59,298 bases of DNA from an uncultured Verrucomicrobiae bacterium (GCA_963762565.1 CAVXLD010000006.1:1-59298), one strand, 5' to 3'. Numbered from the stretch's first letter, positions 3,089 through 50,665 are shown. Program-made: numbers and translations. Notes: generated by a model from the sequence alone, not told the origin.

Positions 3089-3359
3089 TGGTAGGGCGAG
3101 GCTCCCGAAATAACCAGAAGGAGGTCGCAGCGCGAAATGGTGCTTCATTCGGATGCGGGATGCAATACCTGAAAACTGCCGAGGCGCCCGACGTAGCCTT
3201 TCCACATGCCAGCCGTTCCCAGGTCCGAGTAGGCGTAGTCGGAGCCGTGGGTTGTGCAAGCCGCGGCTCGGCGAGCGATTTGGCGTTGCACATGGAACGG
3301 TCGATCAAAATTGGGCCCCTGTTGACCGGTTTGGGCCGTTCGGGAGCCTCGCCCTACCA
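3089..3359. repeat. GTAG-type paired element (family A); other copies at 1-17, 23108-23201, 44516-44779, 50455-50657
   Basis: TGGTAGGGCGAGGCTCCCGAA ... TTCGGGAGCCTCGCCCTACCA with inner GCCGAG(C/G)CG / CGGCTCGGC. Confidence 0.92.
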
Positions 3360-3470
3360 ACTTCTCTTGTTGCCGAGCAGATTTCTCTGCTAATGTGAAA
3401 TTTCTCGAGAAATGAACCCCCCGGGGCTCGCTTGTTCTAGTTCCCGGAAAACCCAGAACCCACAACGAGT

Positions 3471-4283
3471 ATGAGCGAAGCGCAGACCGAGGCGAGACCA
3501 GAAGTTTCATTGCTTCAACAGGCGGTCAATCTGTTCTTGAAGGACGCCCTGCCGCATTTGACGCTTACCGCTTGTGCGGACGCGACCATTCGGTCAATAC
3601 CAAGGTTCATATCAGGGGGTGCTGTTTCCGGCAGCCTTTGGTATCCGGGCCAGCGGCCAAATACCAGATTCAGATTGGCGCTGGAGGGAGATGCGGTCGT
3701 ACATCGAGAGAGCGCCGAACTCGACCTGCCGCCTGAGGCGCTGAAACCGGCGGAAGGAGCTGAAGACGATGTGCGTATCCTGTTACATCGCTCGCTGAAA
3801 TCTTTAACCACGGACCGGCCGGCGGTTGATAACCTGCAGCAAGCGAAGTATCGGGCGGCCATCGAGATCCGGTTCTGTTATTTTGGGCGATTGATCCTGC
3901 TGCTAATCGTTGGGCTGCCGAGCGCCAAAGGTTTGGTCAACAAAGAGTCCGAGGATTTCCTGAACTTATTTTGCCGGTGCTGCCTGATTACTCTGCAGGG
4001 TGCCTACATAGCGGGCATGGAAGAGAGATCCGGGCGTTCGAGCGGTCTGTTGCTACAAGAGAAATGCAATCTCACTTTTCATTGGTTTCACTCGATTACG
4101 CGGCACCTAAGCCTTGGTATCAACCGCCTGCGGGCGGGGCAATATCCGGAAGCAGCCGACGCGCTCGATCGAACGTCCGTCGTGGCCGCGGTCTGTCTAG
4201 CTGAGATTATTACGCTAGTAAATACGATATCCGGGCCTGGCCCATTGGTGGCGAACTTATCAACGCCGGCGGCGAGCGCGTGA
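3471..4283 (+). CDS. Hypothetical protein, possibly a degenerate GAF + HisKA-like module
   Basis: 270-aa ORF; C-terminal half loosely resembles a GAF end helix followed by an H-box-like segment (inference). Confidence 0.7.
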   Translation: MSEAQTEARPEVSLLQQAVNLFLKDALPHLTLTACADATIRSIPRFISGGAVSGSLWYPGQRPNTRFRLALEGDAVVHRESAELDLPPEALKPAEGAEDDVRILLHRSLKSLTTDRPAVDNLQQAKYRAAIEIRFCYFGRLILLLIVGLPSAKGLVNKESEDFLNLFCRCCLITLQGAYIAGMEERSGRSSGLLLQEKCNLTFHWFHSITRHLSLGINRLRAGQYPEAADALDRTSVVAAVCLAEIITLVNTISGPGPLVANLSTPAASA

Positions 4284-4327
4284 GGGGGGATACGGCGAAT
4301 GGGCGAAGGGCCGATGGGGCGAATGGG

Positions 4328-4550
4328 CGGTAGGGCGAAAATCTCGGCGCGCCGAGGACGGACCACTCAGACTACCGGTACGCGCGCCGGATTTGAGCCG
4401 TGCCGTGGGGGTTGCCACCTCGCCGGCTCGATTGTCCTGAAAACACGATTATGCGCCTCGACGTTGCAGGCGCACGCATGGCTCAAATCCGGCGCGTAAA
4501 CATCGATAGAAATGGTTTGTCAGGGGCGCGCCGAGATTTTCGCCCTACCG
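4328..4550. repeat. Family B element flanked by inverted octamer arrays (4293-4327, 4560-4625)
   Basis: GGTAGGGCGAAAATCTCGGCGCG / CGCGCCGGATTTGAGCC / GGCTCAAATCCGGCGCG / CGCGCCGAGATTTTCGCCCTACC. Confidence 0.95.
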
Positions 4551-4633
4551 ACCCCGCGCCCCATCGCCCCTTCGCCGTGTCGCCCCTTCGCCGTTTCGCC
4601 CATTCGCCGTTTCGCCCATTCGCCCCCTCGCAA

Positions 4634-5032
4634 TCAGGGCGATGGTTTTGCCCAAGTGGCACGCAGCTTGGCCATCCGGCGGGCTCGAAATTCTTCAAGT
4701 TTCTGCTGCTGGTCCGGGTCTAGCAGCGGCGCCAATCCCGCCAGGGTCTGGTCGAAAGCCTGGTTATTTTCCTGTACCGTTTTTATCCGGACGGCGCGGA
4801 GCCTTTCGATGGCTTCATGAATTGGCGCCCTGACCTTCTCCTGTTGTTCCGGCGTCAAATGGAGCTGGTTCGTGAGATTTCGCATCACTGCTTGCTCCCA
4901 GGACACCGTCGGGGGCACTTTCGTGTTGAATTGGTGACGAGAGGTCAGTGTTAGCATTATCGTAGCCCCGCACAGGGCGCCGATGACAAAAAGCAGTGCG
5001 AACGAAAGTGTCAGTTTCCAGCCGAATCCCAT
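4634..5032 (-). CDS. Membrane-anchored Spy/CpxP-like (periplasmic sensor-like) helical protein
   Basis: N-terminal TM helix; LHLTPEQQEKV and LDPDQQQKL repeats of LTxxQ type. Confidence 0.8.
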   Translation of the reverse strand: MGFGWKLTLSFALLFVIGALCGATIMLTLTSRHQFNTKVPPTVSWEQAVMRNLTNQLHLTPEQQEKVRAPIHEAIERLRAVRIKTVQENNQAFDQTLAGLAPLLDPDQQQKLEEFRARRMAKLRATWAKPSP

Positions 5033-5298
5033 AGCGATTGCGCCATTTCGTCGACTGGATCCGGCTCTTCCTGCCCTGCCATCAGGGTTTGGAAGTTCCA
5101 GCCGACAAGTGCGGCAAAAATGACGAGTGCAGCCGAAATCGACAGAATGGAGGTCCGGAACGTGATCCGCGCCCTATGCAAAGCACCTAGATGCAGGGAG
5201 TAGACTCGGCCGGGGAAGTCGCTCGGCATGGAAGCAGGCTCTTCTTTGCCTGCTTCCTTGGCACGTGCGAATAACTGTTCCATCCCGTCGTTCGTCAT
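5011..5298 (-). CDS. Putative single-TM anti-sigma factor
   Basis: Overlaps the ECF sigma stop (ATGA coupling); short cytoplasmic part plus one TM helix. Confidence 0.72.
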   Translation of the reverse strand: MTNDGMEQLFARAKEAGKEEPASMPSDFPGRVYSLHLGALHRARITFRTSILSISAALVIFAALVGWNFQTLMAGQEEPDPVDEMAQSLWDSAGN

Positions 5299-5864
5299 TT
5301 TTCTAATCGCTGGACTGCCGCTGCGAGTTTTTGGCGTGCTCGGAAGGCGGTCACCTTAACTTTTGACGGAGTCCAGCCGGTAAGGTCACAGATTTCTGCG
5401 ATCGATTTTTCTTCTAAATGTAGCCAAGTGACAACGGTCCGCTCATCTGGTTTGAGGCCTTGCATCAAACGTTCCAGCAATTCTTTAGTCTCTTCCGGAG
5501 ACCGCTCGTTAGGCAGAATCGCTGAGTTTTTCAAATTGTCGAGAATGGCCTGTTGTTCTTCGCTGAAATCGGACCAGCGAAACTCGGGACGGACCTTTTG
5601 TTTTCTGAGCTGGTCGATACAAGTATTGACGGCGATGCGGGAGACCCAGTGCTCAAAGGGCATATCCGCCCGAAATTGATGGAGGCGAGAAAAGATTTTC
5701 AGGAAGACGTCTTGGCAAAGGTCTTCTTCCAGCTCTCGCCGGGGAAGATGGTTTCGAACGATGCGGATCACGATAGGATAGGTGAATTCGATCAGCTGCT
5801 TCGCTGCTGATTCATCATTCTTCCTCGCTCGCGCAATTAGGTTGAGAAGAGCGTCATCTGCCAT
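5295..5864 (-). CDS. ECF RNA polymerase sigma factor
   Basis: Region 2 (EEDLCQDVFLKI, FEHWVSRIAVNTCID) and region 4 HTH (SIAEICDLTGWTPSKVKVTAFRAR). Confidence 0.95.
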   Translation of the reverse strand: MADDALLNLIARARKNDESAAKQLIEFTYPIVIRIVRNHLPRRELEEDLCQDVFLKIFSRLHQFRADMPFEHWVSRIAVNTCIDQLRKQKVRPEFRWSDFSEEQQAILDNLKNSAILPNERSPEETKELLERLMQGLKPDERTVVTWLHLEEKSIAEICDLTGWTPSKVKVTAFRARQKLAAAVQRLEK

Positions 5865-6029
5865 TCAACGCGTTGATTCCATGGGCGCTGCGTCCGCCAG
5901 TTGCGCATGGGTCTTTATGAACGCAACCTACTAACATCGCAACCATAAACCCATAAAGCGCTCTCGGGGGCAGCTTGTGGCGACCTCCTGTTTGGACGGT
6001 TCAACCAATAAAATCATCAATCAAAGATT

Positions 6030-6449
6030 ATGTCCTTCCTCAAAGAATTCAGGGACTTTGCGATGAGAGGTTCCGTAATTGACCTCGCCATCGGTGTTAT
6101 TATCGGTGCAGCGTTCGGAAAGATTATTAACGCGCTTGTTAATAGTGTGATAATGCCCCCAATTGGTCTCCTTTTGGGGCGGGTAGATTTCTCCAGCCTG
6201 TTTTTGAATCTGTCGGGTCAACCGGCTGGGTCCTTGAAGGAGGCCACTGATAAGGGGTTGCCGGTTTTAGCTTACGGAGCATTTCTTAACACGGTTATCG
6301 AATTCTTGATCATTGCGTTCGTTTTGTTCCTGGTGATTAAGCAGGTCAACCGGTTCAAGAAACCTCCTGAAGCCCCGAAGACCCCCGAGCCGAGTGCGGA
6401 AGAGAAACTGCTGGGAGAGATTCGGGATATTTTAAAGGCTAGGAGCTAA
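6030..6449 (+). CDS. mscL: Large-conductance mechanosensitive channel
   Basis: [25 protein letters not shown]-terminus; [10 protein letters not shown]-terminus. Confidence 0.98.
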
Positions 6450-6467
6450 GCTCGGAGAGCGTGGGGC

Positions 6468-6565
6468 CGCTTGGCGCTTGGCGCTTGGCGTTCGGCGTTT
6501 GGCGTTTGGCGTTTGGCGTTCGGCGTTCGGCGTTCGGCGTTCGGCGTTCGGCGTTCTGCGTTTGG
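6468..6565. repeat. Heptamer tandem array CG(C/T)T(T/C)GG x14
   Basis: Read directly: cgcttgg x3, then cgttcgg/cgtttgg variants, 14 units in all. Confidence 0.95.
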
Positions 6566-6696
6566 GGTTTCACGGCATCGAAAATCCCGCACGATGCAAT
6601 GCCGGCTTAGCCAGTTGCAAGCTCCTAGAAGAACCCCAGGAACATAACAATGCGTAACACGCTTACAGCAAGTCAGTTATGCCAGACAAGCCCATT

Positions 6697-15768: not shown

Positions 15769-15784
15769 AGCGCTGAAGGCAAAC

Positions 15785-16251
15785 GTGGAGCGCGCCTCGC
15801 TTGCGAGGCCGTGGTGAACAAGGCGAAATCGGGAATGGACACGTTTCCTTACCTGCGCTCTGTATCGCCCCGATTTGAGGTGCGGACTAGACCGCTATCT
15901 GGTCTTGCAATCACGATGTCTTCCAATCCCCGGTCGGGTGCCTAATTGCCGTACGATAGAGCACTGCACGAGCAGACGTTTATTTAACTGTGTCGCCCTG
16001 TTTACCACGGCCTCGCAAGCGAGACACGCTCCACCGGGGGTGGCGACCCCTTCGGCCTCGCAAGCGAGGCACGCTCCACGGGGTGGCGACCCCTTTCGGC
16101 CTCGCAAGCGAGGCACGCTCCACGGGGTGGCGACCCCTTCGGCCTCGCAAGCGAGGCACGCTCCACGGGGTGGCGACCCCTTTCGGCCTCGCAAGCGAGG
16201 CACGCTCCACGGGGGCGACCCTTTCGGCGTCGCAAGCGAGGCAGCGCTCCA
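15785..16251. repeat. GTGG-type REP-like element (family C): inverted pair followed by a tandem array of 43-44-bp units (6 cores)
   Basis: GTGGAGCGCGCCTCGCTTGCGAGGCCG at 15785; repeated CGGCCTCGCAAGCGAGGCACGCTCCAC with GGGGTGGCGACCCCTT linkers. Confidence 0.92.
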
Positions 16252-16258: not shown

Positions 16259-17506
16259 CTAAGAGTTTTTGGCGGCGGGGGTGGCGCTGGCTTGCTTTTT
16301 CTCTTCCTGAGTGGGGCGGACCTTTACCTTTTGGCCGGCGGTTAGGCTGTCGGAGGGATTGACGATGATTCTGTCGTCGATGGTCACTCCTTGAGTGACC
16401 TCTAATTGGTTACCCAGATCGCGGCCGATTTTAATCTTCTTCAACTCCACGACATTATTCTGGTCCACAACTCCAACGGCAGCGCCTTCGGATCGAAAGA
16501 GCAAGGTATTTGCTGGGACCAGCACGGACCGGTTGCTTCCTTGGGTAACCAAGCGGACCTGGGTATAAGCCCCTGGATATAGTTCACCCGATTCATTCGG
16601 GACATCGACCTCAGTTAGTAATGTGCGCGAATTAGGATCGATAGCACCGGCAGTGCGAACCACTTTACCGGAGAATTCTTTACCGGGAAACTCGTTGAAC
16701 GTCAGTTCGGCGGTTGCTCCAACCGCGACATCTTGCGCCATGTTCTCGGGCACGTTCACATAGACGCGTAATGGTTTCACTTGCGCCACGGTAAAGAGAG
16801 GATTGCCCGAACCTGAGTTAACCAGGGCGCCGATATCGGTATTTCTTGCGGTTACAATTCCATCAAATGGGGATTTGACGGTCTTGAAGTCTTCAAGCGC
16901 TTGCAAGCTCATCACCGCCGCTTGGTCCGCATTGACTGTGGCCTGTTTTACGCCGAGATCACTGGTGGCGGTATCAAAGTCTTGTTGTGCGATTACCCGC
17001 CGTTGAAGCAGGTCCTGATCTCGTTTGTAAGTTACGAGAGAGAGATCGAGGGCCGCTTGCGCTTCCTTGAGTGTCGCTTTGGTCTGATTTAATTGTTGGT
17101 CGACCTGGGGGGTGTCGATTTCAGCGAGAACGTCTCCCGCTTTCACCTGGGCGCCGATATCAAAATACCATTTCTTTAAATACCCGCTGGTTTGAGCGAA
17201 GACGGGTGCTTGGATGTAGGCTTGGGTTTGCCCTGGGAGTTCTAGCGAAACTGTGGCAGGCAGCCGGTTGGGTTTAACGACAGTCACTGTTAGCTCGGAA
17301 GCGACTTGGTTTGCCTGTTGCTCAAGTTTCTCGGTCGCAGCCGACCGGGTCATTACACCATATACGGCCAGCGCTGCCAGGCAGACCACGCCCGCTAACA
17401 AGACAAGGATCAGCCGGCCGCCTTGCCGCGCACGCTTGGCGCCTGGGGATCCCTGAGCGGGGCTGGAGTCTCGTTTCTGTTTTTTTTGAAGAACGGTTTC
17501 GTCCAT
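16259..17506 (-). CDS. RND efflux periplasmic adaptor (membrane fusion protein)
   Basis: N-terminal TM; DIGAQVKAGDVLAEI and SPFDGIVT lipoyl halves; AIDPNSRTL. Confidence 0.95.
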   Translation of the reverse strand: MDETVLQKKQKRDSSPAQGSPGAKRARQGGRLILVLLAGVVCLAALAVYGVMTRSAATEKLEQQANQVASELTVTVVKPNRLPATVSLELPGQTQAYIQAPVFAQTSGYLKKWYFDIGAQVKAGDVLAEIDTPQVDQQLNQTKATLKEAQAALDLSLVTYKRDQDLLQRRVIAQQDFDTATSDLGVKQATVNADQAAVMSLQALEDFKTVKSPFDGIVTARNTDIGALVNSGSGNPLFTVAQVKPLRVYVNVPENMAQDVAVGATAELTFNEFPGKEFSGKVVRTAGAIDPNSRTLLTEVDVPNESGELYPGAYTQVRLVTQGSNRSVLVPANTLLFRSEGAAVGVVDQNNVVELKKIKIGRDLGNQLEVTQGVTIDDRIIVNPSDSLTAGQKVKVRPTQEEKKQASATPAAKNS

Positions 17507-17535: not shown

Positions 17536-20500
17536 TCATGGTTTAGCGGGTTCGGGTTTGTCAGCCTGTTCAGGGAAATGGTAGTGGCGCCGGACCATCA
17601 TAAAGACGGTAGGTACAAAGAACAAGGTACCGACAGTAGCCAGGATCAGTCCACCGATAACGGCTCGGCCGAGGGGCGCGTTCTGTTCGCCGCCCTCACC
17701 CAAGCTCAACGCCATGGGTACCATACCGATAATCATAGCGAGAGCGGTCATGACGACAGGTCGTAAACGAATGTAACCCGCTTGCAGGGCAGCCTGATAA
17801 GAGTCTCTCACTTCAAGCAATTTTTCGTTAGCGAACGTGATCACTAATACGCTGTTAGAAGTAGCGACCCCCATACACATAATGGCTCCCATTAGTGCCG
17901 GAACGCTCAGCGTCGTGCCGGTGAGAAACAAAATCCAGACGATGCCGGCTAAAGCGCAGGGTAGCGCCGTGATAATAATAAACGGCTCTGTCCACGACTG
18001 GAAGTTTACCACCATCAACAGATAAACCAGGACGATCGAAAAGATTAATCCCATGTAGAGACCGGAGAAGGAAGATTGCATCGTCTTCGTCTGTCCACGA
18101 ATGATGATTAAACTTCCCTTAGGTAAATCTTTCTTGGCCGCATCGACCAGCTTCTGGACCTGATTCGACACATACCCCAGATCCTTGCCATCGACATTGC
18201 CGTAAATGTTAATCACCGGCCGAATGTCGTAGTGGTCTACTACAGGTGAAGTTGTGCTGCGCGAGATTTCAGCGACGTTAGCCAAAATCTGAGGTGCTCC
18301 GGTCCCGCCCAGAATCGGTAAATTTCGGAGCGCGCTCAGCGAGTCCATCTGATATTGGGGCTCCATCGTGCTTACTTGATAGTTGACCCCGTTTTTCGGA
18401 TCGACCCAGAAGTTCTGGGTCGTCGATTGTGAGCCGGCTAAGGCGCCTAGAACGCTGTTAGCAACGTTCTGTTCCTGGACACCGAGCATAGAAGCTTTCG
18501 TTCTATCAACGGTCACATTGAAGCGGGGCACATCATTTGGTTCCTGAATGCGCAAATCCACTAGGCCCGCCACTCTGCGCATCTGACTCATCAACCGGCT
18601 GGCAAACTGAAAATTCGCGTTCTTATTCAGACCTTGGACCTGGACGTTGATGGGCGCAGGCAATCCGAAATTCAAGATCTGGGCTACGATATCTGCCGGA
18701 GGAAACCAGAACTCAACTTCCGGAAAATTCCGCGGCATCTGCCTGCGGATAGCTCGGATGTAGTCGTTAGTCGGACTATGATTTTCTTTGAGCGATACAA
18801 TGATGTCGCCATCCGCGGAGCTAGTGGTCCCGCTGGTATTATAGGACGTATTGATTCCGCTATAAGGAATGCCCAGATTATCGATGATACCGTCGAGTTG
18901 ATTCGCTGGGATTGTCCGCCGCAGCATCTGCTCAACTTCGTCAACCGTCCGCGCTGTTTCTTCGATGCGAGTTCCGGCCCTCATCCGGATATGCATATCG
19001 AAACGACCGGCATCAACGCTGGGAAAGAAATCTTGGCCAAGGAAAGGAAAGAGACCGAGGGATGCGACGGCGAAGGCAATGACCGCAACCACCGTAATCT
19101 TGGGGTGACGCAAACAGATGCTTAACAGGTCGCGATATCCTTCTCGGAACTTGCTGAAGTTGCCCTCAAACCTTCGTGAGATTCTGCCAAAGATCGTCTT
19201 GGGAGCTGCCGGCTCATGGGAGCGATGGCGATCCAACTCGGGCGGGAGCAGGTATTTCGCGAAAGTAGGAACAACCGTTCGCGATAAGAGATATGAAGCC
19301 AGCATGGCGAACACGACCGCTTCAGCGAGAGGTACAAAGAGATATTTGGCTGTCCCGGCGAGGAAAAAAATCGGGACAAACACAATGCAAATACAAAGGG
19401 TCGATACGAGAGCCGGCACCGCGATCTGGGCGGCTCCCTGCAGGATGCAGTGATGCATATCACCCCCTTCAGCCATGTTTCGATGGATGTTCTCAATTTC
19501 AACGGTTGCATCGTCGACTAGAATACCAACTGCCAGAGCCATTCCGCCGAGGGTCATGATATTGATCGTTTCACCCAGCATGCTCAGCACTACGATGGAA
19601 CAGAGAATAGAGAGCGGAATGGAAACACAGATGATCAGCGTGCTGCGCCAGCTGCTCAGGAACAAAAGGATCATCAATGCGGTTAAAGCAGCGGCGATGA
19701 CGGCTTCGCGGAGCACGTTTTGAATGGCAGCGCTTACGAAGATCGATTGGTCCGTCAATAACGTAAGTTTCAGGTTCTCTGCGCCGGGCGGAAGCGTCTG
19801 CTTGATCTCGGGCAATTTCTTTTTTACGCCGTCCACGATGTCCAGAGTGGAAGCGGCTCCGATCTTCTGGACATCCAGCATCGCCGCTCGGGAGCCATCA
19901 AAACGGACCACATTGGTTTGAGGGATAAAGCCGCTCCGGACATTGGCAACATCGCGTACGTAAATGGTGCTGCCATTCGGAAGCGATTTGATTGGGAGCG
20001 CGTTAAGCTCTTCAATCGTTTCCGGACTCGAATTGAGATCAACCTGATACTCGAATTGACCGATCTTCATCGTCCCGGAGGGGAGGATCAGGTTTTGACT
20101 GCCCATTGCATTGACGACGTCAATCGGCGTCAGATGGAGGGCTTGTAGTTTTTGATAATCCAAATCGACCGACACGTATCGCTGTTTACCGCCATATGGG
20201 TAGGGAACACCTACGCCCGGCACCGTGATGATTTGGGTGCGGACGAACTGCATAGCTAAATCGTTGAGCTGTTGCTCAGAAAGCCCCTGGCCGGATAAGC
20301 CGACTCGAAGCACCGGCACATTCGTGGCGGTGTAAGCGATAACCAACGGCGGGGTCATCCCGGGAGGCATTTGCCGAAGCGCAGCTTGCGAAATCGAAGT
20401 GACTTGGGCTACGCCGGCGGCCAGGCTAGTACCCGGCTGCAGAAATATCTTTACGATCGAGCTCCCATACATCGACTGCGACTCGATGTGCTCGATATTA

Positions 20501-22479: not shown

Positions 22480-23127
22480 ATGAAAGTGGTCATTACTGGG
22501 GGACCAAGCAGCGAGCCCATTGACGAGGTTCGCTTGATCACGAACCGTTCGACTGGAGAACTAGGCATAATCCTGGCTCAAGCTTTCTGGCAAAGCGGTC
22601 ATCAAGCCAGTCTTTTTTTAGGGCGACTTTCACAGTTCCGTCACCCCGAAGCTGCGTATTTTGATCGCAACGAAGATCTTCAGCGGATGTTTCGAGAGAT
22701 TGATGAAAGCAAGTCGGTGAACGTTGTGTTACACGCGGCTGCGCTCGCGGATTTCGAGGTCACAGCGGTTCGCGCCGGGAACCGCGATATCGGCTTAAGC
22801 AAGATCGGCAGCGAACATCAAACACTGTCACTCGAGCTCGCTCCGAAACAAAAAGTGATTGGCGGGCTCCGCGATGTTTTCCCCAATGCTTTGATCGTTG
22901 GATGGAAACTAGAGCTCGATGGCTCTCGGGATGATCTGGTTCGAGAAGCAACGCTACAGGTCAAAAAGAATCGGACCGATGCCTGTGTGGTCAATGGCCG
23001 AGCGTTCGGTGACGGATTTGGATTTTGCACCCACAAGGGTTTGCAGGAGTCATTTCCGTCCAAACCTGAGCTGGCCGCGTTTCTCGTTAAATGGGCCGAA
23101 GCTGAACTGGTAGGGCGAGGCTCCTGA
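22480..23127 (+). CDS. Stand-alone CoaB-like phosphopantothenate--cysteine ligase domain protein
   Basis: VITGGPSSEPIDEVRLITNRSTG; HAAALADF; VGWKLE; no CoaC flavoprotein domain. Confidence 0.85.
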   Translation: MKVVITGGPSSEPIDEVRLITNRSTGELGIILAQAFWQSGHQASLFLGRLSQFRHPEAAYFDRNEDLQRMFREIDESKSVNVVLHAAALADFEVTAVRAGNRDIGLSKIGSEHQTLSLELAPKQKVIGGLRDVFPNALIVGWKLELDGSRDDLVREATLQVKKNRTDACVVNGRAFGDGFGFCTHKGLQESFPSKPELAAFLVKWAEAELVGRGS

Positions 23128-23361
23128 ACGGCCGATAAACCTTCGCAAGGGTCTTAACCTTATGTGGCTCCTCGCCAGCAAATCCCAGTGCCGCCGAGCC
23201 GGAACCAGCGCGTACCATGGTCAGCGGCTCTCTGCGAAATGCCGAACTGATTTGATCGTTCACCGCGTTCCCGTGCGATGTCCAAGTTCGCTCTGTCGTC
23301 TGAAACGTTTATTAATTGCAACCCCCGGCCCTTGTACTATTTTCCGGCTTCGTCGCACTAC

Positions 23362-23436
23362 GCGCGGTTAGCTCAGTGGTAGAGCGCTTGCTTCACACGC
23401 AAGAAGTCGCAGGTTCGAACCCTGCACCGCGCACCA
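23362..23436 (+). tRNA. tRNA-Val (anticodon CAC)
   Basis: GCGCGGT/ACCGCGC acceptor stem; CTTGC-TTCACAC-GCAAG anticodon arm; GGTTCGAAC T-loop; encoded CCA. Confidence 0.97.
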
Positions 23437-25664: not shown

Positions 25665-26372
25665 ATGACCGGCGTGTCTTCGTTATCCAAAGTAAAAGAG
25701 AGATCAGCGTCTCCAGCCCTGCCGCGGCAGCGGTTAAGCAAGCGAGATCAATTAGTCGAAACCGCGTGGCGGTTGTTCTATCGAGATGGGTATCATGCTA
25801 CCGGGATCGACCGGATCTTAGCCAGCGCCGGTGTCGCAAAAATGACTCTTTACAAGCACTTTCGGTCGAAAGAGGACCTGATTTTGGCCGTCCTGGAAAA
25901 ACGGAGCGACCTGTTCCGGGAATCGTTCTCTCGATTTCTACAGGCAAAGAGAGGTACGCCGGAGCAACAGCTGCTGGGCGTGTTCGACTGGCTAGTTAAC
26001 TGGATCAAAAGCAAAGAGTTTCGCGGCTGTTTCTTTCAGAAAGCGATGGCCGAATACCAGAGTATACAAGATCCGATTCATCGAGCGGCGCTGGCGCATA
26101 AGGCTGCTTTTCATGCCGAGATCGGCCGGTTGGTGAAAGAAGCCGGGTTGGCTCGCCCTAAGAATTTGGGTGATCAGCTGGCACTTATCGTGGAGGGCGC
26201 CATCGTAAGTTCACATGCTCTTGGGTCGTCCGTGCCAGCGATACAGGCCAGAGCGGCAGCGCGATCTCTGATCAAGATGGGAGGAACCCAGGGAAGCCTC
26301 GCGCAAAGGACGCAACGGGAGAGATTGGTAGGGCGAAAATCTCGGCGCGGACAACGGAAACCACTTTCCTGA
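25665..26372 (+). CDS. TetR/AcrR family regulator; last ~25 aa derived from a repeat element
   Basis: [40 protein letters not shown]. Confidence 0.93.
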
Positions 26373-26574
26373 CAGAACCGCGCCGGATTTGAGCCATGCG
26401 TGCGCGTTGCATCGTCCAGGACATGATCGTTCTCCGGCCAATGGAAGCTAGCGGGGTGGTATATCAACGGCGCGGCTCAAATCCGGCGCGGATACATCTA
26501 GCCTGAATGGCCCATCTACGGCGCGCCGAGATTTTCGCCCTACCAATCTCCCGTTGCGTCCTCTGCGCGAGGCT
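26295..26574. repeat. Family B element (26327-26545) inside an outer inverted repeat AGCCTCGCGCAAAGGACGCAACGGGA
   Basis: All four family B conserved blocks; outer IR ends TCCCGTTGCGTCCTCTGCGCGAGGCT. Confidence 0.9.
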
Positions 26575-35259: not shown

Positions 35260-35444
35260 GTGGAGCGCGCCTCGCTTGCGAGGCCGATGGTAAGCAGGGG
35301 GGTGACGTGGCGCCGGCTGGATCGTGGACTACGCTCTTACGTGTAGAGACGAGAGTCGCGACACCGTGCGCAGACAAGGATGGGTGCAATTCGTCACGAT
35401 TTCCCTTGCTCACCATCGGCCTCGCAAGCGAGGCAACGCTCCAC
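35260..35444. repeat. Family C inverted pair
   Basis: GTGGAGCGCGCCTCGCTTGCGAGGCCGATGGT ... ACCATCGGCCTCGCAAGCGAGGCAACGCTCCAC. Confidence 0.9.
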
Positions 35445-44389: not shown

Positions 44390-44988
44390 AAGTTCAATCA
44401 GGAACCGACTCTACGTACCACTATTACCCGAATTCAGAGCACCAGGTTGCGTTCCTGCGCAAATTCGTACAGGAAATCGGATGGGAAACAAGCCAATGCT
44501 TGGTGGGGCAGTCCATAGGGGGGCGAGGCTCCCGAACGTTCAGAGCGTGGTCCCAAGGTAACAAGATGTTTGCTTTCGATGTGAACCGGCCCGTAAGACG
44601 TGCCGAGCCGCGGCCCAGGATGTGCCAAAACCGAGAGCGTCGATCTAATGTTCAGGCACTGTTTCCTGGCGAGCTCTGGGGCCCGGCTCGGCGGGTTTGT
44701 AGCGCTGCGCACGTCGATGTTCGTTTCGACCAATTCCGTTGCGAGGATCAATCGGTTTTTCGGGAGCCTCGCCCCACCAACAATTGATGACGCGTAATCA
44801 ACAACTGTCGTGCTTTTCTCAAGACTCCAATAGGGCCCCGCGGCCACGCCTTTCCAGATTGGGAGCCTCGCCGCGGGCGTACCCCGATTTTACCTGAGGC
44901 GCCCAACATTTTATGGCTTGATCGATTGACGGTGGCATTAACAACGGGTAGTATCCCGGCCACAAACTACCCGCCAAGAGAGATTTTT

Positions 44989-45235: not shown

Positions 45236-45448
45236 GTCTTTAGGGGGCTCTTTTGCGTATCGGCGTGACGGCGTATGGGCGTGTCGGCGTAGGTGCGATG
45301 GGCGAAACGGATCCGGAGTGACGGCCGGCGCTGGAGCTGACTACGGATGGGACTTATGGGACAGATAGGACCTATAAGTACCTCAATCACCAGGGGTTAC
45401 ATCTGCATGTACGCCGATACGCCCATACGCCGACACGCCCACACGCAA

Positions 45449-46954
45449 TCACCGTCCCAGGAGGCCTACGATGGCTTCGACCAGGCCGTCGATATCGTGT
45501 CGGGTGGCTTCCACGTCTACTTTCAGGCCTGCTTCTCGCATGGTGGTTGAGGTAATCGGGCCGATACTGGCCGTTTTAATCCCCTTTGGCCAAGGGAGCT
45601 TCATAGCCAGAAAATTTTCAACCGTGGATGAGCTGGTAAAAGTGATGAGATCCGCTCCTTCGTCGGTAAACCGCTTTTTAGCGCCGGTGATATCGTCCGT
45701 TTCCGGAAGGGTTCGATAAGCGATCGCTTCGTCGACGATAGCGCCCAATTGGGTGAGACGTTTCGGTAATACATCCCGCGCGTTCGCCGCTCTAACCAGG
45801 AGAAACCTGAGGTTCTCGACGCTCTCATGCTGTTGGAATGCCTCGACCAAACGTTCTGCAACGGCCTCTTCCGGCTGCAGATCGACTGCCAGATGCAAGT
45901 CTTTCACGCGCCTCGCCGTACCCGGGCCGATTGCTGCGATCCGAGCGCTCCCTAATGCTCGAGCGTCGTCGTAAAGCTTGAAAAAAAGGTCAAAAAACGC
46001 GTTCACTCCGTTTGGACTAGTAAAGACCACCCAGTCGTATTGGAACGAGTCGCGAACGAGCTCTCCGAACTCCATCAGGTTTTCAGGGGGTACGATCTTG
46101 ATGGTCGGTAACTCGCTGACGTCTGCTCCGAGCGCACGCAACCGGGCGCTCAAAGCGCCGGCTTGCTGGCGGGTTCGGGTCACGACGATCCGTCGCCCAA
46201 ACAAAGCCCGGTCCTCGAACCATTTCAGACGTTGGCGATAGGAGACGACATCGCCAAATACGGCGACAACTGGCGGCTCAATATCCAGCGCAACTTCCTG
46301 AATATTGTTGAGTTGCCCGACCACCGTTTCCTGGCGTCCGGTTGTTCCCCAACGCACGAGTGCGACGGGCATGGCAGGGTTCGCTCCGTTGGCGCGGAGC
46401 TCACCGACGACTTTGGAGAGCCGGGCTGCGCCCATCAGCATGACCAAAGTACCGCGGCTTTGGACCAAGGCAGCATAGTCAATACCGGATTCTTCCTTAG
46501 TCGGATCCTCGTGGCCGGTAAACACGGTAAACGATGAATTAACTTCACGGTGGGTTATTGGGATACCGGCGTAAGCGGGGACCGCAATGGCGGAGGTAAT
46601 TCCGGGAACAATCTCAAATGGAATCCCAGCTTGAGAGAGGATTTCAGCTTCTTCGGCTCCGCGGCCAAAAACAAACGGATCGCCCCCTTTTAGACGGACT
46701 ACCGACTTACCGTCCTTAGCTCTCTGCAGAATCAGGTCATTGATCTCGGCCTGAGAAAGCGTATGCGCAGCGGCCTGTTTACCCGCATAAATAATCTCTG
46801 CATCCGGACGCGCCCAGCTTAAGATCTCCGGGTTACAAAGGTAGTCATAAACGACGACGTCGGCCTGCTCGACGGCTTCCTTTGTTCTGAGCGTTACCAG
46901 TCCGATGTCTCCCGGTCCCGCGCCGGCTAAAACGCACTTACCTGTCTTTGACAT
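45449..46954 (-). CDS. cobA: Fused uroporphyrinogen-III C-methyltransferase / uroporphyrinogen-III synthase (CobA-HemD)
   Basis: GAGPGD; RLKGGDPFVFGRG; then VVTRT, FTSPNGV, FTSSSTV. Confidence 0.95.
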   Translation of the reverse strand: MSKTGKCVLAGAGPGDIGLVTLRTKEAVEQADVVVYDYLCNPEILSWARPDAEIIYAGKQAAAHTLSQAEINDLILQRAKDGKSVVRLKGGDPFVFGRGAEEAEILSQAGIPFEIVPGITSAIAVPAYAGIPITHREVNSSFTVFTGHEDPTKEESGIDYAALVQSRGTLVMLMGAARLSKVVGELRANGANPAMPVALVRWGTTGRQETVVGQLNNIQEVALDIEPPVVAVFGDVVSYRQRLKWFEDRALFGRRIVVTRTRQQAGALSARLRALGADVSELPTIKIVPPENLMEFGELVRDSFQYDWVVFTSPNGVNAFFDLFFKLYDDARALGSARIAAIGPGTARRVKDLHLAVDLQPEEAVAERLVEAFQQHESVENLRFLLVRAANARDVLPKRLTQLGAIVDEAIAYRTLPETDDITGAKKRFTDEGADLITFTSSSTVENFLAMKLPWPKGIKTASIGPITSTTMREAGLKVDVEATRHDIDGLVEAIVGLLGR

Positions 46955-47864
46955 AAATCTCTCGATACAATAATTGGGCGGCATCTAAAGGCGCCTTCGG
47001 CGGCACAATAACCGAGCCCTGACGAATTTTTCCTGCCTCTTCAAAAACGATAGCAGCCAGTGTCATCGTATTACCAACTACCCTAGCATAGACGCCGATC
47101 GGCACATTGCAGCCGCCGCCAACCAGGCGAAGAAATTCTCGTTCGGCTCGGACACAATCCCAAGAAACGGGATCATTTATTCGGTTCAAAATCGAGCGAA
47201 CTACAGAATCGTTCTCGCGGCATTGCAAGGCAATGGCTCCTTGACCGGCAGCCGGAAGCAACCCTCTGAGGTCGCTAATAAATAAGTCTGTATCCAGGAA
47301 GCGCAAACGTCCCTGCTCCGGCGCTAACCGTAGCCTTTGCAGACCGGCACGCGCGAGAATGATCCCTGACCATTCCGCTGTGCGAACGAGTTTTTCCAGG
47401 CGGGTCGGTACGTTTCCTCGCACATCGCAAACGCGGATATCTGGCCGGAGATAGGTGATTTGTTGGGCTCGACGGGTGCTGCCGGTAGCGATTAACGGTC
47501 CTGCCGGCAACGCGTCCAGTCCGCCGGGTAACTTCGAGACCAGCACATCCACGGGATCTTCCCGCGGTAATACCGCTTCGATTACGAGCTGCGGAACGGA
47601 TTCAGTGGGCAGATCTTTGAGGGAATGCACCGCCAGGTCGATCTCTTTGCTCAGAAGTGCTTGTTCCAATTCCTTCGTGAACAGGCCCTTATCGAAACTT
47701 TTGCCAGAATCGTTTAAGCGCAGGTCGAGCCGTTGGTCACCGGTCGTCTTGATGACGCGAATGTCGATCGCTTCTACCTCGCCGGAACTCAATAGCGCTC
47801 TCTGGGTGATCTCTGCTTGGGCGAGCGCCAACTGACTCCCTCTGGTTCCAAGAACGATCTTCAC
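46938..47864 (-). CDS. hemC: Hydroxymethylbilane synthase
   Basis: GTRGSQLALAQ; KGLFTKELE; AVHSLKD; RGNVPTRL; GGC. Confidence 0.97.
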   Translation of the reverse strand: MKIVLGTRGSQLALAQAEITQRALLSSGEVEAIDIRVIKTTGDQRLDLRLNDSGKSFDKGLFTKELEQALLSKEIDLAVHSLKDLPTESVPQLVIEAVLPREDPVDVLVSKLPGGLDALPAGPLIATGSTRRAQQITYLRPDIRVCDVRGNVPTRLEKLVRTAEWSGIILARAGLQRLRLAPEQGRLRFLDTDLFISDLRGLLPAAGQGAIALQCRENDSVVRSILNRINDPVSWDCVRAEREFLRLVGGGCNVPIGVYARVVGNTMTLAAIVFEEAGKIRQGSVIVPPKAPLDAAQLLYREIYVKDR

Positions 47865-47879
47865 TTGGAGCGTCTGCGG

Positions 47880-49040
47880 TTAGCAGGCCCTGTCCGGCCT
47901 TGCCGGATCGCGCCAAAGCACAGCGTCGGCGGAACCCTGTCGCGCCGTCTTGTCCACCATAGCTTTAGCGACGGAGGAAGGCCTTGCAGAGGCGGAAGCG
48001 AGGCGCGCTCCAGGGTTAGGCATCGGGTTAACCGACTTTTCTATCCAGTTCTGGAATTCTATTACGTGCTTTGCGATCAAGCGATCACACCCGACAATCT
48101 CTTGTTTCCGTGTTTCCATCGAGCGTTCCGCCATGGATTGCAGAGCATCCAGATCATAAACGTACACGCCGTCCAAGCGGTGAACATTAGGGTCGATATC
48201 CCGAGGGACAGCGACGTCAATCATGAAAAGCGGACGATCACCGCGGTGTCTCAGAACCGGGGCGATCTTTTCCACCGTAACAATCGCGTGCGGAGCTGAG
48301 GTCGAGGTCACCAAGATATCCAGATCCGCAAATTCTCGTTCCCAATCCTCAAAATGGATTGCCCGGCCACCCGTCTCCTGTGCCAGCACTTGAGCCCGAT
48401 CAAATGACCGATTCGAAACGAAGATCTGGTGAGCACCGCGCGCCTTGAAGCTACGCGCCATTTTTTCGCTAGTATCGCCTGCGCCTAACACCATGATCTT
48501 GCAACCTTCCAGCTTACCGAAGATCTGCTCGGCGAGATCGACGGCGATTGACCCCACCGAGATGCTTCCCCGTCCGACGCCCGTAGAAGAGCGAACCTGT
48601 TTGCCCACGTGAAACGACTTCTGAAAAAGCTTGTTCAACTGGCGCCCGGTCGCCTTTTCGCGGACCGCTGCTTCATAAGCGCGTTTTACCTGGCCAAAAA
48701 CTTCAGTCTCGCCCACGACCATTGACTCCACTCCTGAGACCACCCGGAATAGGTGGTGGACACAGCGTTCAGCCCACAGTCCGAAAAAGTGGGGCTCATC
48801 GCCTGACCGCAGGCCTTTATAGAACTCCTCAAAAAAGCGGGCCGCCGGAAGCTGAGAAACTGCGCCCGTCACATAAAACTCGGTTCGATTGCAGGTCGAT
48901 ATGATCAGGCCTTCTTCGACGCCCTCGATGGCTCGGAGCCGTAATAGAGCCTCTGGGAGAGCAGAATCCCCTATGGCGAACCGTTCCCGTATTTCAACGC
49001 TCGCGGTTTGATGACTTAATCCAAAGCAGGAAATGTTCAT
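47880..49040 (-). CDS. hemA: Glutamyl-tRNA reductase (short form with repeat-derived tail)
   Basis: STCNRTE; SMVVGETEVFGQVK; GAGD; DVAVPRDID. Confidence 0.95.
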   Translation of the reverse strand: MNISCFGLSHQTASVEIRERFAIGDSALPEALLRLRAIEGVEEGLIISTCNRTEFYVTGAVSQLPAARFFEEFYKGLRSGDEPHFFGLWAERCVHHLFRVVSGVESMVVGETEVFGQVKRAYEAAVREKATGRQLNKLFQKSFHVGKQVRSSTGVGRGSISVGSIAVDLAEQIFGKLEGCKIMVLGAGDTSEKMARSFKARGAHQIFVSNRSFDRAQVLAQETGGRAIHFEDWEREFADLDILVTSTSAPHAIVTVEKIAPVLRHRGDRPLFMIDVAVPRDIDPNVHRLDGVYVYDLDALQSMAERSMETRKQEIVGCDRLIAKHVIEFQNWIEKSVNPMPNPGARLASASARPSSVAKAMVDKTARQGSADAVLWRDPARPDRAC

Positions 49041-49867
49041 CTTACCGGAGGCAGTTCCGAGATAAAGCGAATACCCCAGAACATGCTCAATAGGAGGCCG
49101 AAGACGACGATCGACAAAGTTGCTACCCACCTGGTGGCCATCGAGTGCCGGAGCCGCGCCAGCAAAATCCCGCCATAGAGAGCCCAGACCACCAGCGACC
49201 ACGCGACTTTCCGCCAATCGACATCCTGGCCGATCAGGAATCCGGTACCTAACCCGACGGTAAAGAGACCAAAACCGAGCCACAACAGCCGGGAATTAGC
49301 CACGACCAGGGTTCTGATGGGAGGCAAACGGAAGAACACCGACGATGGCCGCCGTGTTTTCAGCTGTCGTTCCTGGATCAAGTACATCAGGCCGGCTAGA
49401 CCAGCCAGAGCGAACGCCCCGCAGGCGACGATAGAAAAAGAGGTATGCGCTTCTAACCAGGGATTGACGGGCTGTTTAACGGCGATGGCCGGCGGTTCGG
49501 GCTGGAGTAACGCCCAAATGCTCAATACTCCGGCAAAGGGCGTCGTGAACACACCGAGGAGAGAGAGCCGGTAGGAAGAGCCGATCACGAGATAGATCAG
49601 GATCATCGACCAGCTCAGAAACGTCAGCAGCTCGCAGAAATTGGTGATCGGGCACCGGCCCACCGCATGACCGCGAATACCGAGAAAAATCGACTGGCAA
49701 ACGAATCCTGCCACAACCAGCCCAAAGGTCAGACGGGGCGCCATGAATTTGCCCGCAAACAACGTGTAGGCTGAATAGGCTGAAGCCAGGACAAAACAAT
49801 AGGTCGCCAACCAGATCCAGAGCCGATCTGCAGCGAAAATGAATGATCCAAGAAAATCCAGATGCAT
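49037..49867 (-). CDS. Cytochrome c assembly protein family (CcsA/HemX-like) membrane protein
   Basis: About 8 TMs; CPITNF; WLEAH; YLIQERQLK; directly upstream of hemA. Confidence 0.88.
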   Translation of the reverse strand: MHLDFLGSFIFAADRLWIWLATYCFVLASAYSAYTLFAGKFMAPRLTFGLVVAGFVCQSIFLGIRGHAVGRCPITNFCELLTFLSWSMILIYLVIGSSYRLSLLGVFTTPFAGVLSIWALLQPEPPAIAVKQPVNPWLEAHTSFSIVACGAFALAGLAGLMYLIQERQLKTRRPSSVFFRLPPIRTLVVANSRLLWLGFGLFTVGLGTGFLIGQDVDWRKVAWSLVVWALYGGILLARLRHSMATRWVATLSIVVFGLLLSMFWGIRFISELPPVR

Positions 49868-49900
49868 CAACAAAACTGAACTGCTACGCTCCGGTCATTC

Positions 49901-50431
49901 ATGAGTGGAGTCAATCTCGAACACATCCAGGCGGCGATTCGCCCGGTTCCTGACTTCCCGCAACCAGGCATCCTGTTCAGAGACATTACTCCGGTCTTGG
50001 CTGATGCGGACCTCTTCCGGGAGGTAATTGATCTTTTGGCTGAGAAAACCGTGAATTTCGGGGCCGAGAAAGTCGTTGGCATCGACGCGCGCGGTTTTCT
50101 TTTTGGCGCCGCGGTGGCTTATAAACTCGGTCTTGGCTTTGTCCCGATTCGGAAAAAAGGGAAGCTGCCCGCCGAGACGATTCGCTATTCGTACGTGTTG
50201 GAATACGGCAAAGCCGATATGGAGATTCACGTCGACGCTGTGCGCCCGGAAGAAAAAGTCGTTTTAGTGGACGACCTGTTGGCGACGGGGGGGACTGCGG
50301 CCGCCGCAGTCCATTTAGTTCAGCAATTGGGCGCCAAAGTCGCGGCAGCCCTGTTTTTTATTGAGTTAGCCGATCTCAACGGACGGCAGCATCTGGGTGG
50401 TGTGCCGGTTGAAACGCTGGTCACTTTCTGA
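49901..50431 (+). CDS. apt: Adenine phosphoribosyltransferase
   Basis: PDFPQPGILFRDIT; DARGF; RKKGKLP; VDDLLATGGT. Confidence 0.98.
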   Translation: MSGVNLEHIQAAIRPVPDFPQPGILFRDITPVLADADLFREVIDLLAEKTVNFGAEKVVGIDARGFLFGAAVAYKLGLGFVPIRKKGKLPAETIRYSYVLEYGKADMEIHVDAVRPEEKVVLVDDLLATGGTAAAAVHLVQQLGAKVAAALFFIELADLNGRQHLGGVPVETLVTF

Positions 50432-50665
50432 TGGCGAGGTGCGCTCCGATACGCTGGTAGGGCGAGGCTCCAAAATGTGAAGTGGTCGCCGGCGAATTTG
50501 TCCGCCTGATTTCGATCGCACCTGCGCGCGTTGCAACATGGCCGAGCCGCTGCGCCGCGCCACCCCCGGCTCGGCGATGCTGCGACACGTTCGGATGATT
50601 CACGTCAGGGGACGATTTTATCAGGGGTTGGCCACAATTTGGAGCCTCGCCCTACCAACTTTGCT

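Follow-up and report, generated by a model that had tools for sequence, protein, structure and literature searches.

The best-described relatives of the repeat considered here are the REP sequences and their associated RAYT enzymes. The REPINs of Pseudomonas fluorescens SBW25, as presented in the passages of PMC3116915 devoted to them, are inverted REP doublets with predicted hairpins that occur in hundreds of intergenic copies, have ends that are more conserved than the spacer, and are accompanied by a REP-flanked RAYT; the spacer seems to matter chiefly through how long it is and whether it can form a hairpin (Bertels & Rainey 2011, PMC3116915). The REP/BIME sequences of Escherichia coli, which are associated with TnpA-REP, consist of a GTAG head and an imperfect palindrome with a bulge, according to the relevant sections of PMC3333891, PMC3479197 and PMC8266576. 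Verrucomicrobia are described as rich in GTAG-tagged repeats in the survey sections of Di Nocera et al. (2013, PMC3733652), where such repeats, including those of Opitutus terrae, carry a GTAG or GTGG head and form tail-to-tail dimers. As that survey sets out its method, most loops are 2-4 nt and repeats with an unusual loop length were discarded, and split REPs would therefore be missing from it.

Family A, a repeat found in a 59,298-nt stretch of DNA from an uncultured Verrucomicrobiae bacterium (the window, taken at its full length) and throughout the 6.1-Mb genome, shares these structural traits with the three systems, the bulged palindrome in its compact form. It departs from the known REP/REPIN-RAYT systems in its split halves. 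A REP is a tetranucleotide immediately followed by a short imperfect palindrome of 20-40 nt, a description that applies to the relatives' repeats but not to family A here. Some 70 variable bases separate REP halves that are contiguous in related bacteria, which is unusual. Compared with the SBW25 REPINs, each REP thus contains a variable segment of fixed length between halves that are contiguous in relatives, and additional conserved rungs are present, the second being GCCGAGCCG and the third CCCAGCG. The units, at 205-290 bp, are two to three times the SBW25 inter-REP distances of 71 and 110 bp given in PMC3116915, and the filler centers are unpaired, in contrast to the paired spacers that the same source describes for Pseudomonas REPINs. 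E. coli REPs measure 29-37 nt with short loops in the account of PMC8266576, whereas the family A loop is about 70 nt, and the family A closing stem, unlike that of the E. coli REP, is too weak to appear on its own in most folds. That account calls the upper half of the E. coli REP a 'non-specific structural' part, which could explain the tolerance of a large loop.

Family A elements are REPIN-type doublets of about 200-290 bp in which two inversely oriented arms are bounded by a 22-bp terminal inverted repeat, TTGGT(A/G)GGGCGAGGCTCC, and GCCGAGCCG forms an inner stem. The left and right arms reported in the earlier note are real, but they are halves of three inverted doublets (3089-3359, 44516-44779 and 50455-50657), accompanied by one solo arm and one cut element. 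The first doublet (3089..3359, no strand assigned, 271 bp, complete) comprises a terminal block (3089-3110), filler (3111-3177), inner block (3178-3186), apical part (3187-3263), mirror inner block (3264-3272), second filler (3273-3338) and terminal block (3339-3359). It sits between the divergent ORFs 2584..3075(-) and 3471..4283(+). The second (44516..44779, no strand assigned, 264 bp, complete) has a degenerate left head (GGGGGGCGAGGCTCC), inner blocks at 44602-44610 and 44684-44692, and an apical part of 91 nt. The third (50455..50657, no strand assigned, 203 bp, complete) belongs to an 'AAAA' subfamily and has inner blocks at 50541-50549 and 50567-50575 and an apical hairpin of 35 nt. As single-stranded DNA, the three fold with z = -4.10, -3.64 and -5.87, respectively. 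The solo left arm (23108..23201, + strand) consists of a terminal block, filler and an inner block at 23193-23201 without a right partner; a tRNA gene (23362-23433) lies downstream. The contig start cuts an element of which the right terminal block remains (1..18, - strand), and a partial second CTCGCCCTACCA copy occurs nearby at about 30-48. By the context within the window, all four in-window copies are intergenic, between ORFs. At up to two mismatches, GTAGGGCGAGGCTCC occurs nine times in the window (expected 0.11). The match at 56080, which has two mismatches, is probably not a copy because no GCCGAGSCG block lies downstream.

The constant spacing of the two halves is borne out within the window and beyond it. 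The distance from GTAG to GCCGAG(C/G)CG in the left arms is 87 nt (3091>3178), 83 nt (23110>23193) and twice 84 nt (44518>44602 and 50457>50541), and the mirror blocks ending at 3272, 44692 and 50575 lie 85, 85 and 80 nt from the element ends at 3357, 44777 and 50655, as the earlier note had indicated. Seven window arms match GGGCGAGGCTCC-N{60,80}-GCCGAGSCG, against 0.00 expected from 100 shuffles, and a genome-wide search for the block-gap-block arrangement returns 215 + 184 = 399 matches against 0 for a reversed control pattern. The inner motif is positionally enriched across the genome: when 548 arms are picked by the terminal core alone and exact GCCGAG is then scored by position, it lies 80-92 nt from GTAG in 437 of them, most often at 85-87, and any single offset elsewhere has just about 0-7 matches. 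In total, the genome holds 549 family A arms and 210 inverted pairs shorter than 800 bp, most commonly 205-210 bp in size. Inverted doublets predominate, given that 390 of 548 arms are paired at 150-360 bp. The inner block is retained in 357/390 paired arms versus 80/158 solo arms, and an inner half within 30 nt of the head is found in none of the 390 paired arms and in three of the 158 solo arms; 80-92 nt separate the two halves. GTAG heads number 272 and GTGG heads 267, and positions 0, 1 and 3 of the head are 96-99% conserved. At the variable position (A/G), partner arms agree in 84% of pairs, compared with 49% for non-partners.

The cognate RAYT-like gene, whose existence the earlier note had anticipated, is located outside the window on contig C10 at C10:17378-17833, at the apex of one stretched-arm unit. 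With a related MAG's RAYT as the query, tblastn identifies a 59%-identical gene at C10:17378-17851. Its left arm carries GTGGGGCGAGGCTCC at 17254 and GCCGAGCC at 17339, and the mirrored right arm carries GGCTCGGC at 17917 and GGAGCCTCGCCCCAC at 17994. The 152-aa protein matches NCBIfam NF047646, 'REP-associated tyrosine transposase', at 84.5 bits (cut-off 80). Its best PDB match is the homologous E. coli TnpA-REP (4ER8 TnpArep, E = 6.2e-7), with the H-x-H (HlH) and Y-x-x-x-NPV stretches aligned over the HUH and Tyr motifs. Pfam Y1_Tnp gives no match to the protein even at E = 10, and the whole-genome Pfam search also missed the gene. Orthologues in the congeners G002 (83% identity) and G004 (87%) are bordered by stretched arms of the same kind (offsets 85 and 83), which flank the RAYT on both sides in G002 and on the left side in G004, where the contig ends inside the gene. 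With the C10 query, no orthologue of at least 80% identity is detected in G005 or G001, which are 81% and 89% complete and contain 89 and 34 exact family A cores, respectively. The genome has one full match to the family A RAYT, the next best being 48% and 33% identical and carrying other REPs. One further RAYT paralogue in the genome is frameshifted.

We propose that family A is probably the non-autonomous, REPIN-type doublet partner of a RAYT, an HUH/Y1 enzyme, in a genus of soil Verrucomicrobiota. Acting on single-stranded DNA, the RAYT would recognize the conserved blocks together with the GT(A/G)G head and would then cut the doublets and copy or move them. One or a few ancestral insertions into the REP loop may have introduced the filler, which all copies then inherited, and it would since have diverged by substitution while the blocks remained under selection. 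We infer a geometric reason for the fixed filler length, namely a constraint that would keep the outer and inner stems, or the REP halves, in register.

Conservation and turnover at orthologous sites bear on whether the host, rather than the enzyme, now maintains the copies. At four orthologous pairs, 155/160 positions match in the terminal blocks and 132/168 in the inner and apical parts, compared with 354/520 in the filler. Blocks that stay in place and are far better conserved than the filler could equally reflect a host-level function, such as BIME-like sites for nucleoid protein binding, transcription termination or mRNA stabilization, to which the RAYT link would be historical. The rightly placed exact GCCGAG in 437/548 arms chosen by terminal core and the intergenic position of the copies, adjoining gene ends and starts, also fit such domestication. 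However, we consider domestication improbable. In congeners, the element occupies only three of the 17 orthologous sites, so a copy seems dispensable at every locus, and the same gaps in relatives hold other repeat families. Domestication would be compatible with the RAYT partnership proposed above. The 50457 site is occupied in G005, G002 and G004 (the last with a degenerate right arm) and empty in G003; the G005 copy orthologous to 50455..50657 matches in 39/40 terminal-block and 100/123 filler positions and is likewise 203 long. The interval aligned to 44516..44779 in G002, G004 and G005 contains no family A element. Direct signs of movement did not emerge: no clean excision junction was found, and the metagenome-contig joints have only 21-27 matching letters on the shorter side.

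The origin of the split is addressed by the compact form and by the filler. The suggestion that the two blocks, once joined, would give one GTAG-type REP is confirmed by contiguous GGTAGGGCGAGGCTCC-(TG/GT/CG)-CCGAGCC in other Verrucomicrobiota MAGs, with contiguous blocks in L080, L102, L097 and L100. Relatives combine the arm halves GT(A/G)GGGCGAGGCTCC and GCCGAGCCG, about 70 nt apart here, in one compact unit of about 25 nt that can form a hairpin. In our reading of this compact sequence, GGCG[AG]GCTC with GAGCCGCC would be the counterpart of the E. coli REP pairing. G031 encodes a 158-aa RAYT with inverted compact REPs on both flanks. Among 102 arms sampled from 100 loci of other Verrucomicrobiota, 65 have an offset of 16-17, 22 an offset of 76-89 and one an offset of 50, and 14 lack a recognizable inner block; the lone offset of 50 is an artefact of a tandem array. 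Such a bimodal distribution is consistent with rare insertion events in the REP loop, passed on by descent. The filler had been called dissimilar and unrelated between copies. It is deeply diverged, but its mean ungapped identity is 0.325-0.334 against 0.238-0.247 for a shifted control, and nearest-neighbor identities form a continuum between 0.45 and 1.0, whereas the control does not exceed 0.5. Judged by these identities, the filler is diverged homologous sequence related by descent. It is partly conserved in the RAYT-flanking orthologous arms of three species. Filler length is kept (sd 1.6 nt). Solo arms, which are probably defunct, nevertheless retain almost the same offsets (sd 3.0 versus 1.7), a point against the proposed constraint on length.

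An active, general stretching mechanism, as the earlier note envisaged, would draw REP halves apart to a set length, with new sequence supplied to the gap. In its favor, one genome contains two families with fixed-length variable loops (about 70 nt in family A and about 26 nt in family B), and a solo arm in G031 shows yet another offset, 103. This mechanism is nevertheless very unlikely and is unsupported by the data: offsets fall at 16-17 or 76-89, the fillers share descent, and the RAYT-flanking arms of three species have a partly conserved common filler. Furthermore, the two RAYTs are paralogous, so the shared design may be inherited. In a further and rather doubtful idea, the filler of roughly 70 nt is a sequence-free, length-selected molecular ruler and the RAYT, perhaps with a host single-strand-binding protein (SSB), joins two REP halves that are unable to pair with each other unaided. 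SSB has a 65-nt binding mode, about the filler length. If this ruler existed, RAYTs would recognize a split REP, a mode undescribed for HUH transposases, and two sister families would have arrived at this design, one with a loop of about 70 nt and the other with one of about 26 nt.

Folding distinguishes the whole doublet from its parts. Whole family A elements fold better than shuffles (z = -3.6 to -5.9), and a single-stranded doublet is predicted to form a long hairpin whose outer stem spans about 22 bp and whose inner stem spans 9-19 bp, with a large middle part left unpaired. The GGCTC/GAGCC stem that had been expected within an arm is weak and appears in only 55/437 minimum-free-energy folds, and the four window arms alone give z = 0.04, 0.72, -1.29 and 0.89. 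The middle of the filler (the central roughly 55 nt) is not complementary between partners (0.25-0.38, versus 0.25-0.30 for non-partners). Long-range conserved helices with variable linkers of fixed length resemble some RNAs, and together with the folding of whole elements they might suggest a structured non-coding RNA gene or RNA regulatory element. The chance of this is slighter still than that of active stretching, since the fillers do not fold more stably than shuffles (mean z = 0.07, n = 200), no consistently covarying pairs occur inside family A arms, Rfam 15 at gathering score finds three tRNAs only in the window and no family over the repeats, the near-perfect palindrome occurs in both orientations, and the RAYT is located inside one unit. 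Least probable of all are classical MITEs, that is, shortened copies of a DDE-type insertion sequence moved via terminal inverted repeats: the 22-bp terminal inverted repeats, the 200-290 bp size, the high copy number and the intergenic location would suit them, but target-site duplications are absent (direct repeats of 2-10 bp at chance level, five boundary offsets, 195 pairs), the GT(A/G)G head is a REP hallmark, and the 754-bp inverted pair, the longest inspected for gene content (longer pairs of 1618 and 3398 bp also occur), encloses the RAYT instead of a DDE gene.

Family B, the sister family, has the layout GGTAGGGCGAAAA-N-CTCGGCGCG ... CGCGCCGG-N'-TTTGAGCC with a loop of about 26 nt. 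Like family A, it forms doublets with a GGTAGGGCGA head and conserved halves around a variable loop of fixed length, and this common design, pointed out in the earlier note, holds. The two families are not independent as had been supposed, because the family B RAYT (C7:542253-542699) is a paralogue of the family A RAYT (48% identity) and both REPs start with GGTAGGGCGA. Family B differs in its strong 12-bp stem with one bulge and in its number of arms (about 110 versus 549). Across its variable loop, a covarying Watson-Crick pair is kept in 86/86 arms (T-A 52, A-T 26 and C-G 8), and all four window arms fold as a REP hairpin across the loop. Family B thus shows that a REP hairpin can close over a long variable loop. 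The window doublets (no strand assigned), built from terminal GGTAGGGCGAAAATCTCGGCGCG, the variable loop and inner CGCGCCGGATTTGAGCC, lie at 4328..4550 (arm fold z = -2.52), 26326..26545 (z = -4.71), 51515..51745 (z = -1.99) and 57835..58054 (z = -1.92), the last inside mirrored short tandem arrays of the GGCGAAT type.

Family A repeats combine split halves with a doublet organization. Each arm consists of a terminal block headed by GTAG or GTGG, a filler of approximately 70 nt and an inner GCCGAG block, and two inverted arms form a REPIN-type doublet. On reading the sequence, inverted doublets are located at window positions 3089-3359, 44516-44779 and 50455-50657, a solo left arm lies at 23108-23201, and a right end truncated by the contig start occupies positions 1-18. 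The 15-mer GTAGGGCGAGGCTCC is found nine times in the window with at most two mismatches (0.11 expected), and GCCGAGSCG is found ten times (2.76 expected), with seven of the ten copies residing inside family A elements. The earlier note had described these repeats as split, and this observation holds, as do its distances, measured from the GTAG position to the inner block in left arms (87, 83, 84 and 84 nt) and from the mirror block to the element end in right arms (85, 85 and 80 nt). The gapped pattern that the note proposed to compare with shuffled sequence, GGGCGAGGCTCC-N{60,80}-GCCGAGSCG, matches the window seven times and shuffles 0.00 times, and its GCCGAGCC variant matches the whole genome 399 times versus 0 with a reversed control. 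The doublet at 50455-50657, a 203-bp element, nearly fills the interval 50431-50672, which is bounded by a stop codon at 50429-50431 and the next ATG at 50672. Because only 23 and 14 nt are free between this element and the neighboring stop and ATG, any promoter or ribosome site of the downstream gene must be located in or beside the repeat.

The same architecture recurs throughout the window's own genome (G000; 6.1 Mb, 15 contigs, GC 54%), which contains 549 family A arms at up to two mismatches and 210 inverted pairs less than 800 bp apart, with a modal pair size of 205-210 bp and a broad class of 230-290 bp. The consensus terminal block is TTGGT(A/G)GGGCGAGGCTCC(C/G)GAA. In 437 of 548 arms, 80-92 nt separate GTAG from the inner GCCGAG, the distribution peaking at 85-87, and the offset averages 85.8 (sd 1.6) in 170 complete pairs. 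Past the inner block, a third conserved rung, GCCGAGCCG-nnn-CCCAGCG ... CGCTGGG-nnn-CGGCTCGGC, is present, and the apical part between the inner blocks falls into length classes of 34-36, 62-67, 91-94 and 103-120 nt. The inner block survives in 357 of 390 paired arms and in 80 of 158 solo arms, and many solo arms stand beside a decayed partner end. Moreover, partner arms agree at the GTAG/GTGG head position in 84% of pairs versus 49% for non-partners. Offsets vary more in solo arms than in paired arms (sd 3.0 versus 1.7), with outliers too few to show relaxed length. Target-site duplications were not found around 195 pairs at five boundary offsets and lengths of 2-10. The apical loop does not serve to orient the elements, since many of these loops are palindromes in their own right. 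In addition to complete blocks, partial terminal-block copies, CTCGCC(C/T)TACCA, are repeatedly seen 20-30 nt beyond a complete right end (window 30-48, G000 C10:18025-18040, and the loci L134 1720-1790 and L100 in relatives), an arrangement reflected in distances of 22-33 nt between cores on the same strand. In one MAG, such copies alternate with compact REPs, in which both blocks are contiguous, in long tandem arrays. These recurring copies may be traces left where a RAYT cut and rejoined the DNA.

Family A belongs to a RAYT-REP system. Its REP-associated tyrosine transposase (RAYT) was reached solely via the protein of a relative, a 158-aa HUH protein encoded between inverted compact REPs in another MAG (G031). 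The closest gene in G000, at C10:17378-17851 (59% identity), lies between two stretched arms, the right one mirroring the left, that constitute a 754-bp pair, and the earlier note's expectation of a cognate RAYT is thus realized at C10. The 152-aa product scores 84.5 bits, above the cut-off of 80, on the NCBIfam model NF047646 'REP-associated tyrosine transposase'. Among solved structures it comes closest to E. coli TnpArep (4ER8; E = 6.2e-7), in an alignment that includes both the HUH and the Tyr-NPV stretches. Pfam does not detect the C10 protein, and the gene was therefore missed in the genome-wide Pfam search. RAYT orthologues in the same-genus genomes G002 (83% identity) and G004 (87%) carry the same stretched arms at offsets of 85 and 83, in which the filler has diverged and the blocks are conserved. 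With this query, an orthologue of at least 80% identity was not found in G005 (81% complete) or G001 (89% complete).

As for other candidate partners, no family A sequence with three or fewer mismatches lies within 3 kb of any of the 12 Pfam Y1_Tnp hits in the genome. Five of the genes recovered by Pfam are further small Y1 transposase genes outside the window (C7:408772, C3:712536, C3:55497, C9:102253 and C1:119032). The four that were checked are all accompanied by other REP families, each gene being surrounded by its own inverted family, such as CGTCCCGTAGGGAC...GGTAGCCAGGCA. Four further Pfam Y1 hits in G000 are open frames of 352-357 aa. A tblastn search yields three intact RAYT-type genes (C10, C7 and C1:579811), and the genome contains at least eight intact small RAYT-type genes in total, six of which are seen with distinct flanking REP families. 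A RAYT paralogue that extends across two reading frames at C4:78558-79009, outside the window, is probably a frameshifted pseudogene. In another genus (G010), the locus L145 encodes a RAYT homologue of 50% identity at 1327-2460 amid compact GTAGGGCGAGGCTTGCCGAGCC units that all point in the same direction, none being inverted.

The family A motif is abundant in five of five other same-genus genomes, with 19-102 exact cores each, versus 0-4 cores per genome in 25 genomes of other genera. When one genome per species is scanned, the motif appears in many Verrucomicrobiota MAGs among the matches listed, and the blocks in these matches are usually contiguous, GGTAGGGCGAGGCTCC-(TG/GT/CG)-CCGAGCC. 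The listed matches include 102 arms at 100 loci, of which 65 have offsets of 16-17 and 22 have offsets of 76-89; one further arm, in a tandem array, has an offset of 50, and 14 have no recognizable inner block. The architecture was read correctly in the earlier note: the REP halves are split in G000 and usually contiguous in the Verrucomicrobiota MAGs listed.

What is the nature of the filler? The fillers had been considered unrelated between copies, which proved incorrect. Their mean ungapped identity is 0.325-0.334 versus 0.238-0.247 in a shifted control, and nearest-neighbor identities form a continuum from 0.45 to 1.0, compared with less than 0.5 in the control; family A fillers are related by descent. 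Information content is approximately zero at positions 41-83, also inside the largest subfamilies, CGAA (n = 187) and GGAA (n = 87), and 380 of 548 fillers match no other in a blastn-short search. Weakly conserved islands comprise CGAACGGCC, and TCGCAGGG near positions 31-40, as well as AGGCC...GCGC immediately before the inner block. The 13 closest nearest-neighbor pairs display seven gap events per 93 substitutions, and alignment artefacts confound this ratio in pairs that are further apart. Self-folding of the fillers is no better than that of shuffles (mean z = 0.07, n = 200), and the two fillers of one element pair mutually only beside the blocks. Complementarity at the filler center is 0.25-0.38 for partners versus 0.25-0.30 for non-partners, and the overall partner excess is small (duplex energy -39.3 versus -34.6 kcal/mol; alignment identity 0.574 versus 0.550). 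Covariation within arms at fixed register consists of noise and subfamily markers only, and the mutual information between terminal and inner positions is dominated by the position-15 subfamily marker, with no in-register Watson-Crick pair.

A sister family marked by GGTAGGGCGAAAATCTCGGCGCG, presumably the family B of the earlier note, forms doublets at window positions 4328-4550, 26326-26545, 51515-51745 and 57835-58054. Its RAYT (C7:542253-542699), which is flanked by family B, is a paralogue of the family A RAYT with 48% identity, and the two families are not independent, contrary to what had been supposed; the interpretation as a general stretching mechanism does not stand either. Family B comprises 110 arms in G000, 86 of which contain the inner block CGCGCCGG-N'-TTTGAGCC at an offset of 53-57. 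The terminal N and inner N' are Watson-Crick complementary in all 86 arms (T-A 52, A-T 26, C-G 8), and four of four window arms are predicted to form the corresponding bulged stem of 12 bp, which closes a loop of 26-30 nt; the variable loop of family B generally measures about 26 nt. Given this covariation and these folds, REP hairpins closed over a long variable loop do exist in this lineage. The homologous family A stem, GGCG[AG]GCTC with GAGCCG(Y), is far weaker and is present in 55 of 437 minimum-free-energy folds, and the predicted folding of the family A arms in the window is no better than that of shuffles. Whole family A doublets fold with z = -3.6 to -5.9 via outer and inner inter-arm stems.

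Family A is a variant within the known REP-RAYT kind. The RAYT biochemistry reported for compact REPs of 23-37 nt assigns recognition to the GTAG head, the lower stem and the bulge or loop base, and describes the upper half of the E. coli REP as structurally non-specific (PMC8266576). Unlike REPs and REPINs as described in the sources cited here, family A contains a variable segment inside each REP, its two fillers do not pair mutually, and its RAYT locus is itself built with stretched arms. We propose that the RAYT would recognize single-stranded DNA by its GT(A/G)G head together with the blocks; a large loop may be tolerated if the upper REP half is structurally non-specific, as in E. coli. 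Insertion sequences that target REP loops, such as IS1397, are known. The filler could have arisen when an insertion, a rare event, enlarged the REP loop of 5 nt, and its length would then have been maintained so that the conserved rungs remain in register. An Rfam scan of the window returned tRNAs only. One metatranscriptome run (X20) provides a 360-nt contig within the upstream gene and nothing covering the element, which is uninformative on transcription. Joints skipping 83 or 159-163 nt in the DNA run X7 match over only 21-23 letters at one of their sides, possibly represent other copies or compact forms from other organisms, and were set aside.

What does a RAYT really read? Approximately 275 natural elements and their own RAYT locus, with the recognition determinants kept and approximately 70 unconstrained bases between the halves, constitute a ready-made test of this question. 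They likewise offer a test of which hairpin, that of the single REP or that of the doublet, is the functional fold, and of why REPIN spacer length, rather than sequence, is preserved. In its treatment of the spacer, the 2011 REPIN paper describes a segment less conserved than the REPs, for which length and hairpin capacity seem to matter, and notes the preservation of length without sequence, leaving the reason open (PMC3116915). The GTAG-tagged REP survey reports loops of mostly 2-4 nt and the discarding of repeats with unusual loops (PMC3733652), and annotation by such surveys would miss families of this type. This survey is the sole relevant match of one literature search on RAYT and Verrucomicrobia, a scope too narrow to call split REPs undescribed. 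Such split-REP families are part of the intergenic DNA in these abundant soil bacteria.

Family A elements turn over between species. At site 50457, the same-genus genome G005 contains an orthologue of the G000 copy that is likewise 203 bp long, and the two copies match at 39/40 positions of the terminal blocks, 100/123 of the fillers and 36/39 of the inner and apical part; the gene upstream agrees at 65% of its third codon positions between the two genomes. The elements of G004 and G002 at this site have unalignable fillers, and G003 has none. Other repeat families occupy sites 3091 and 44518 in relatives. Two syntenic regions contain eight more G000 elements, for which only 3 of 17 site-by-genome comparisons show a complete element. 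When four orthologous pairs are pooled, identity amounts to 155/160 in terminal blocks, 354/520 in fillers and 132/168 in the inner and apical part. Site occupancy and these pooled identities thus indicate fast element turnover between species, with the blocks kept, the filler drifting and the length little changed.

Intergenic repeats seem to replace one another and to become nested. In the divergent-promoter gap orthologous to window 3076-3470, congeners contain other palindromic repeats (L006 1217-1480 in G002; L005 1-250 in G003), namely tandem arrays of AGTTCAGG in mirrored orientation, as well as a long palindrome, nearly perfect, that partly resembles the apical part of the window element (3187-3245). 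Other inverted-repeat families of the window, which belong to neither A nor B, are located at 15784-16211, 35269-35434, 45253-45452 and 56245-56543, and include GCCTCGCTTGCGAGGCC cores and mirrored GGCGTAT-type 7-mer arrays.
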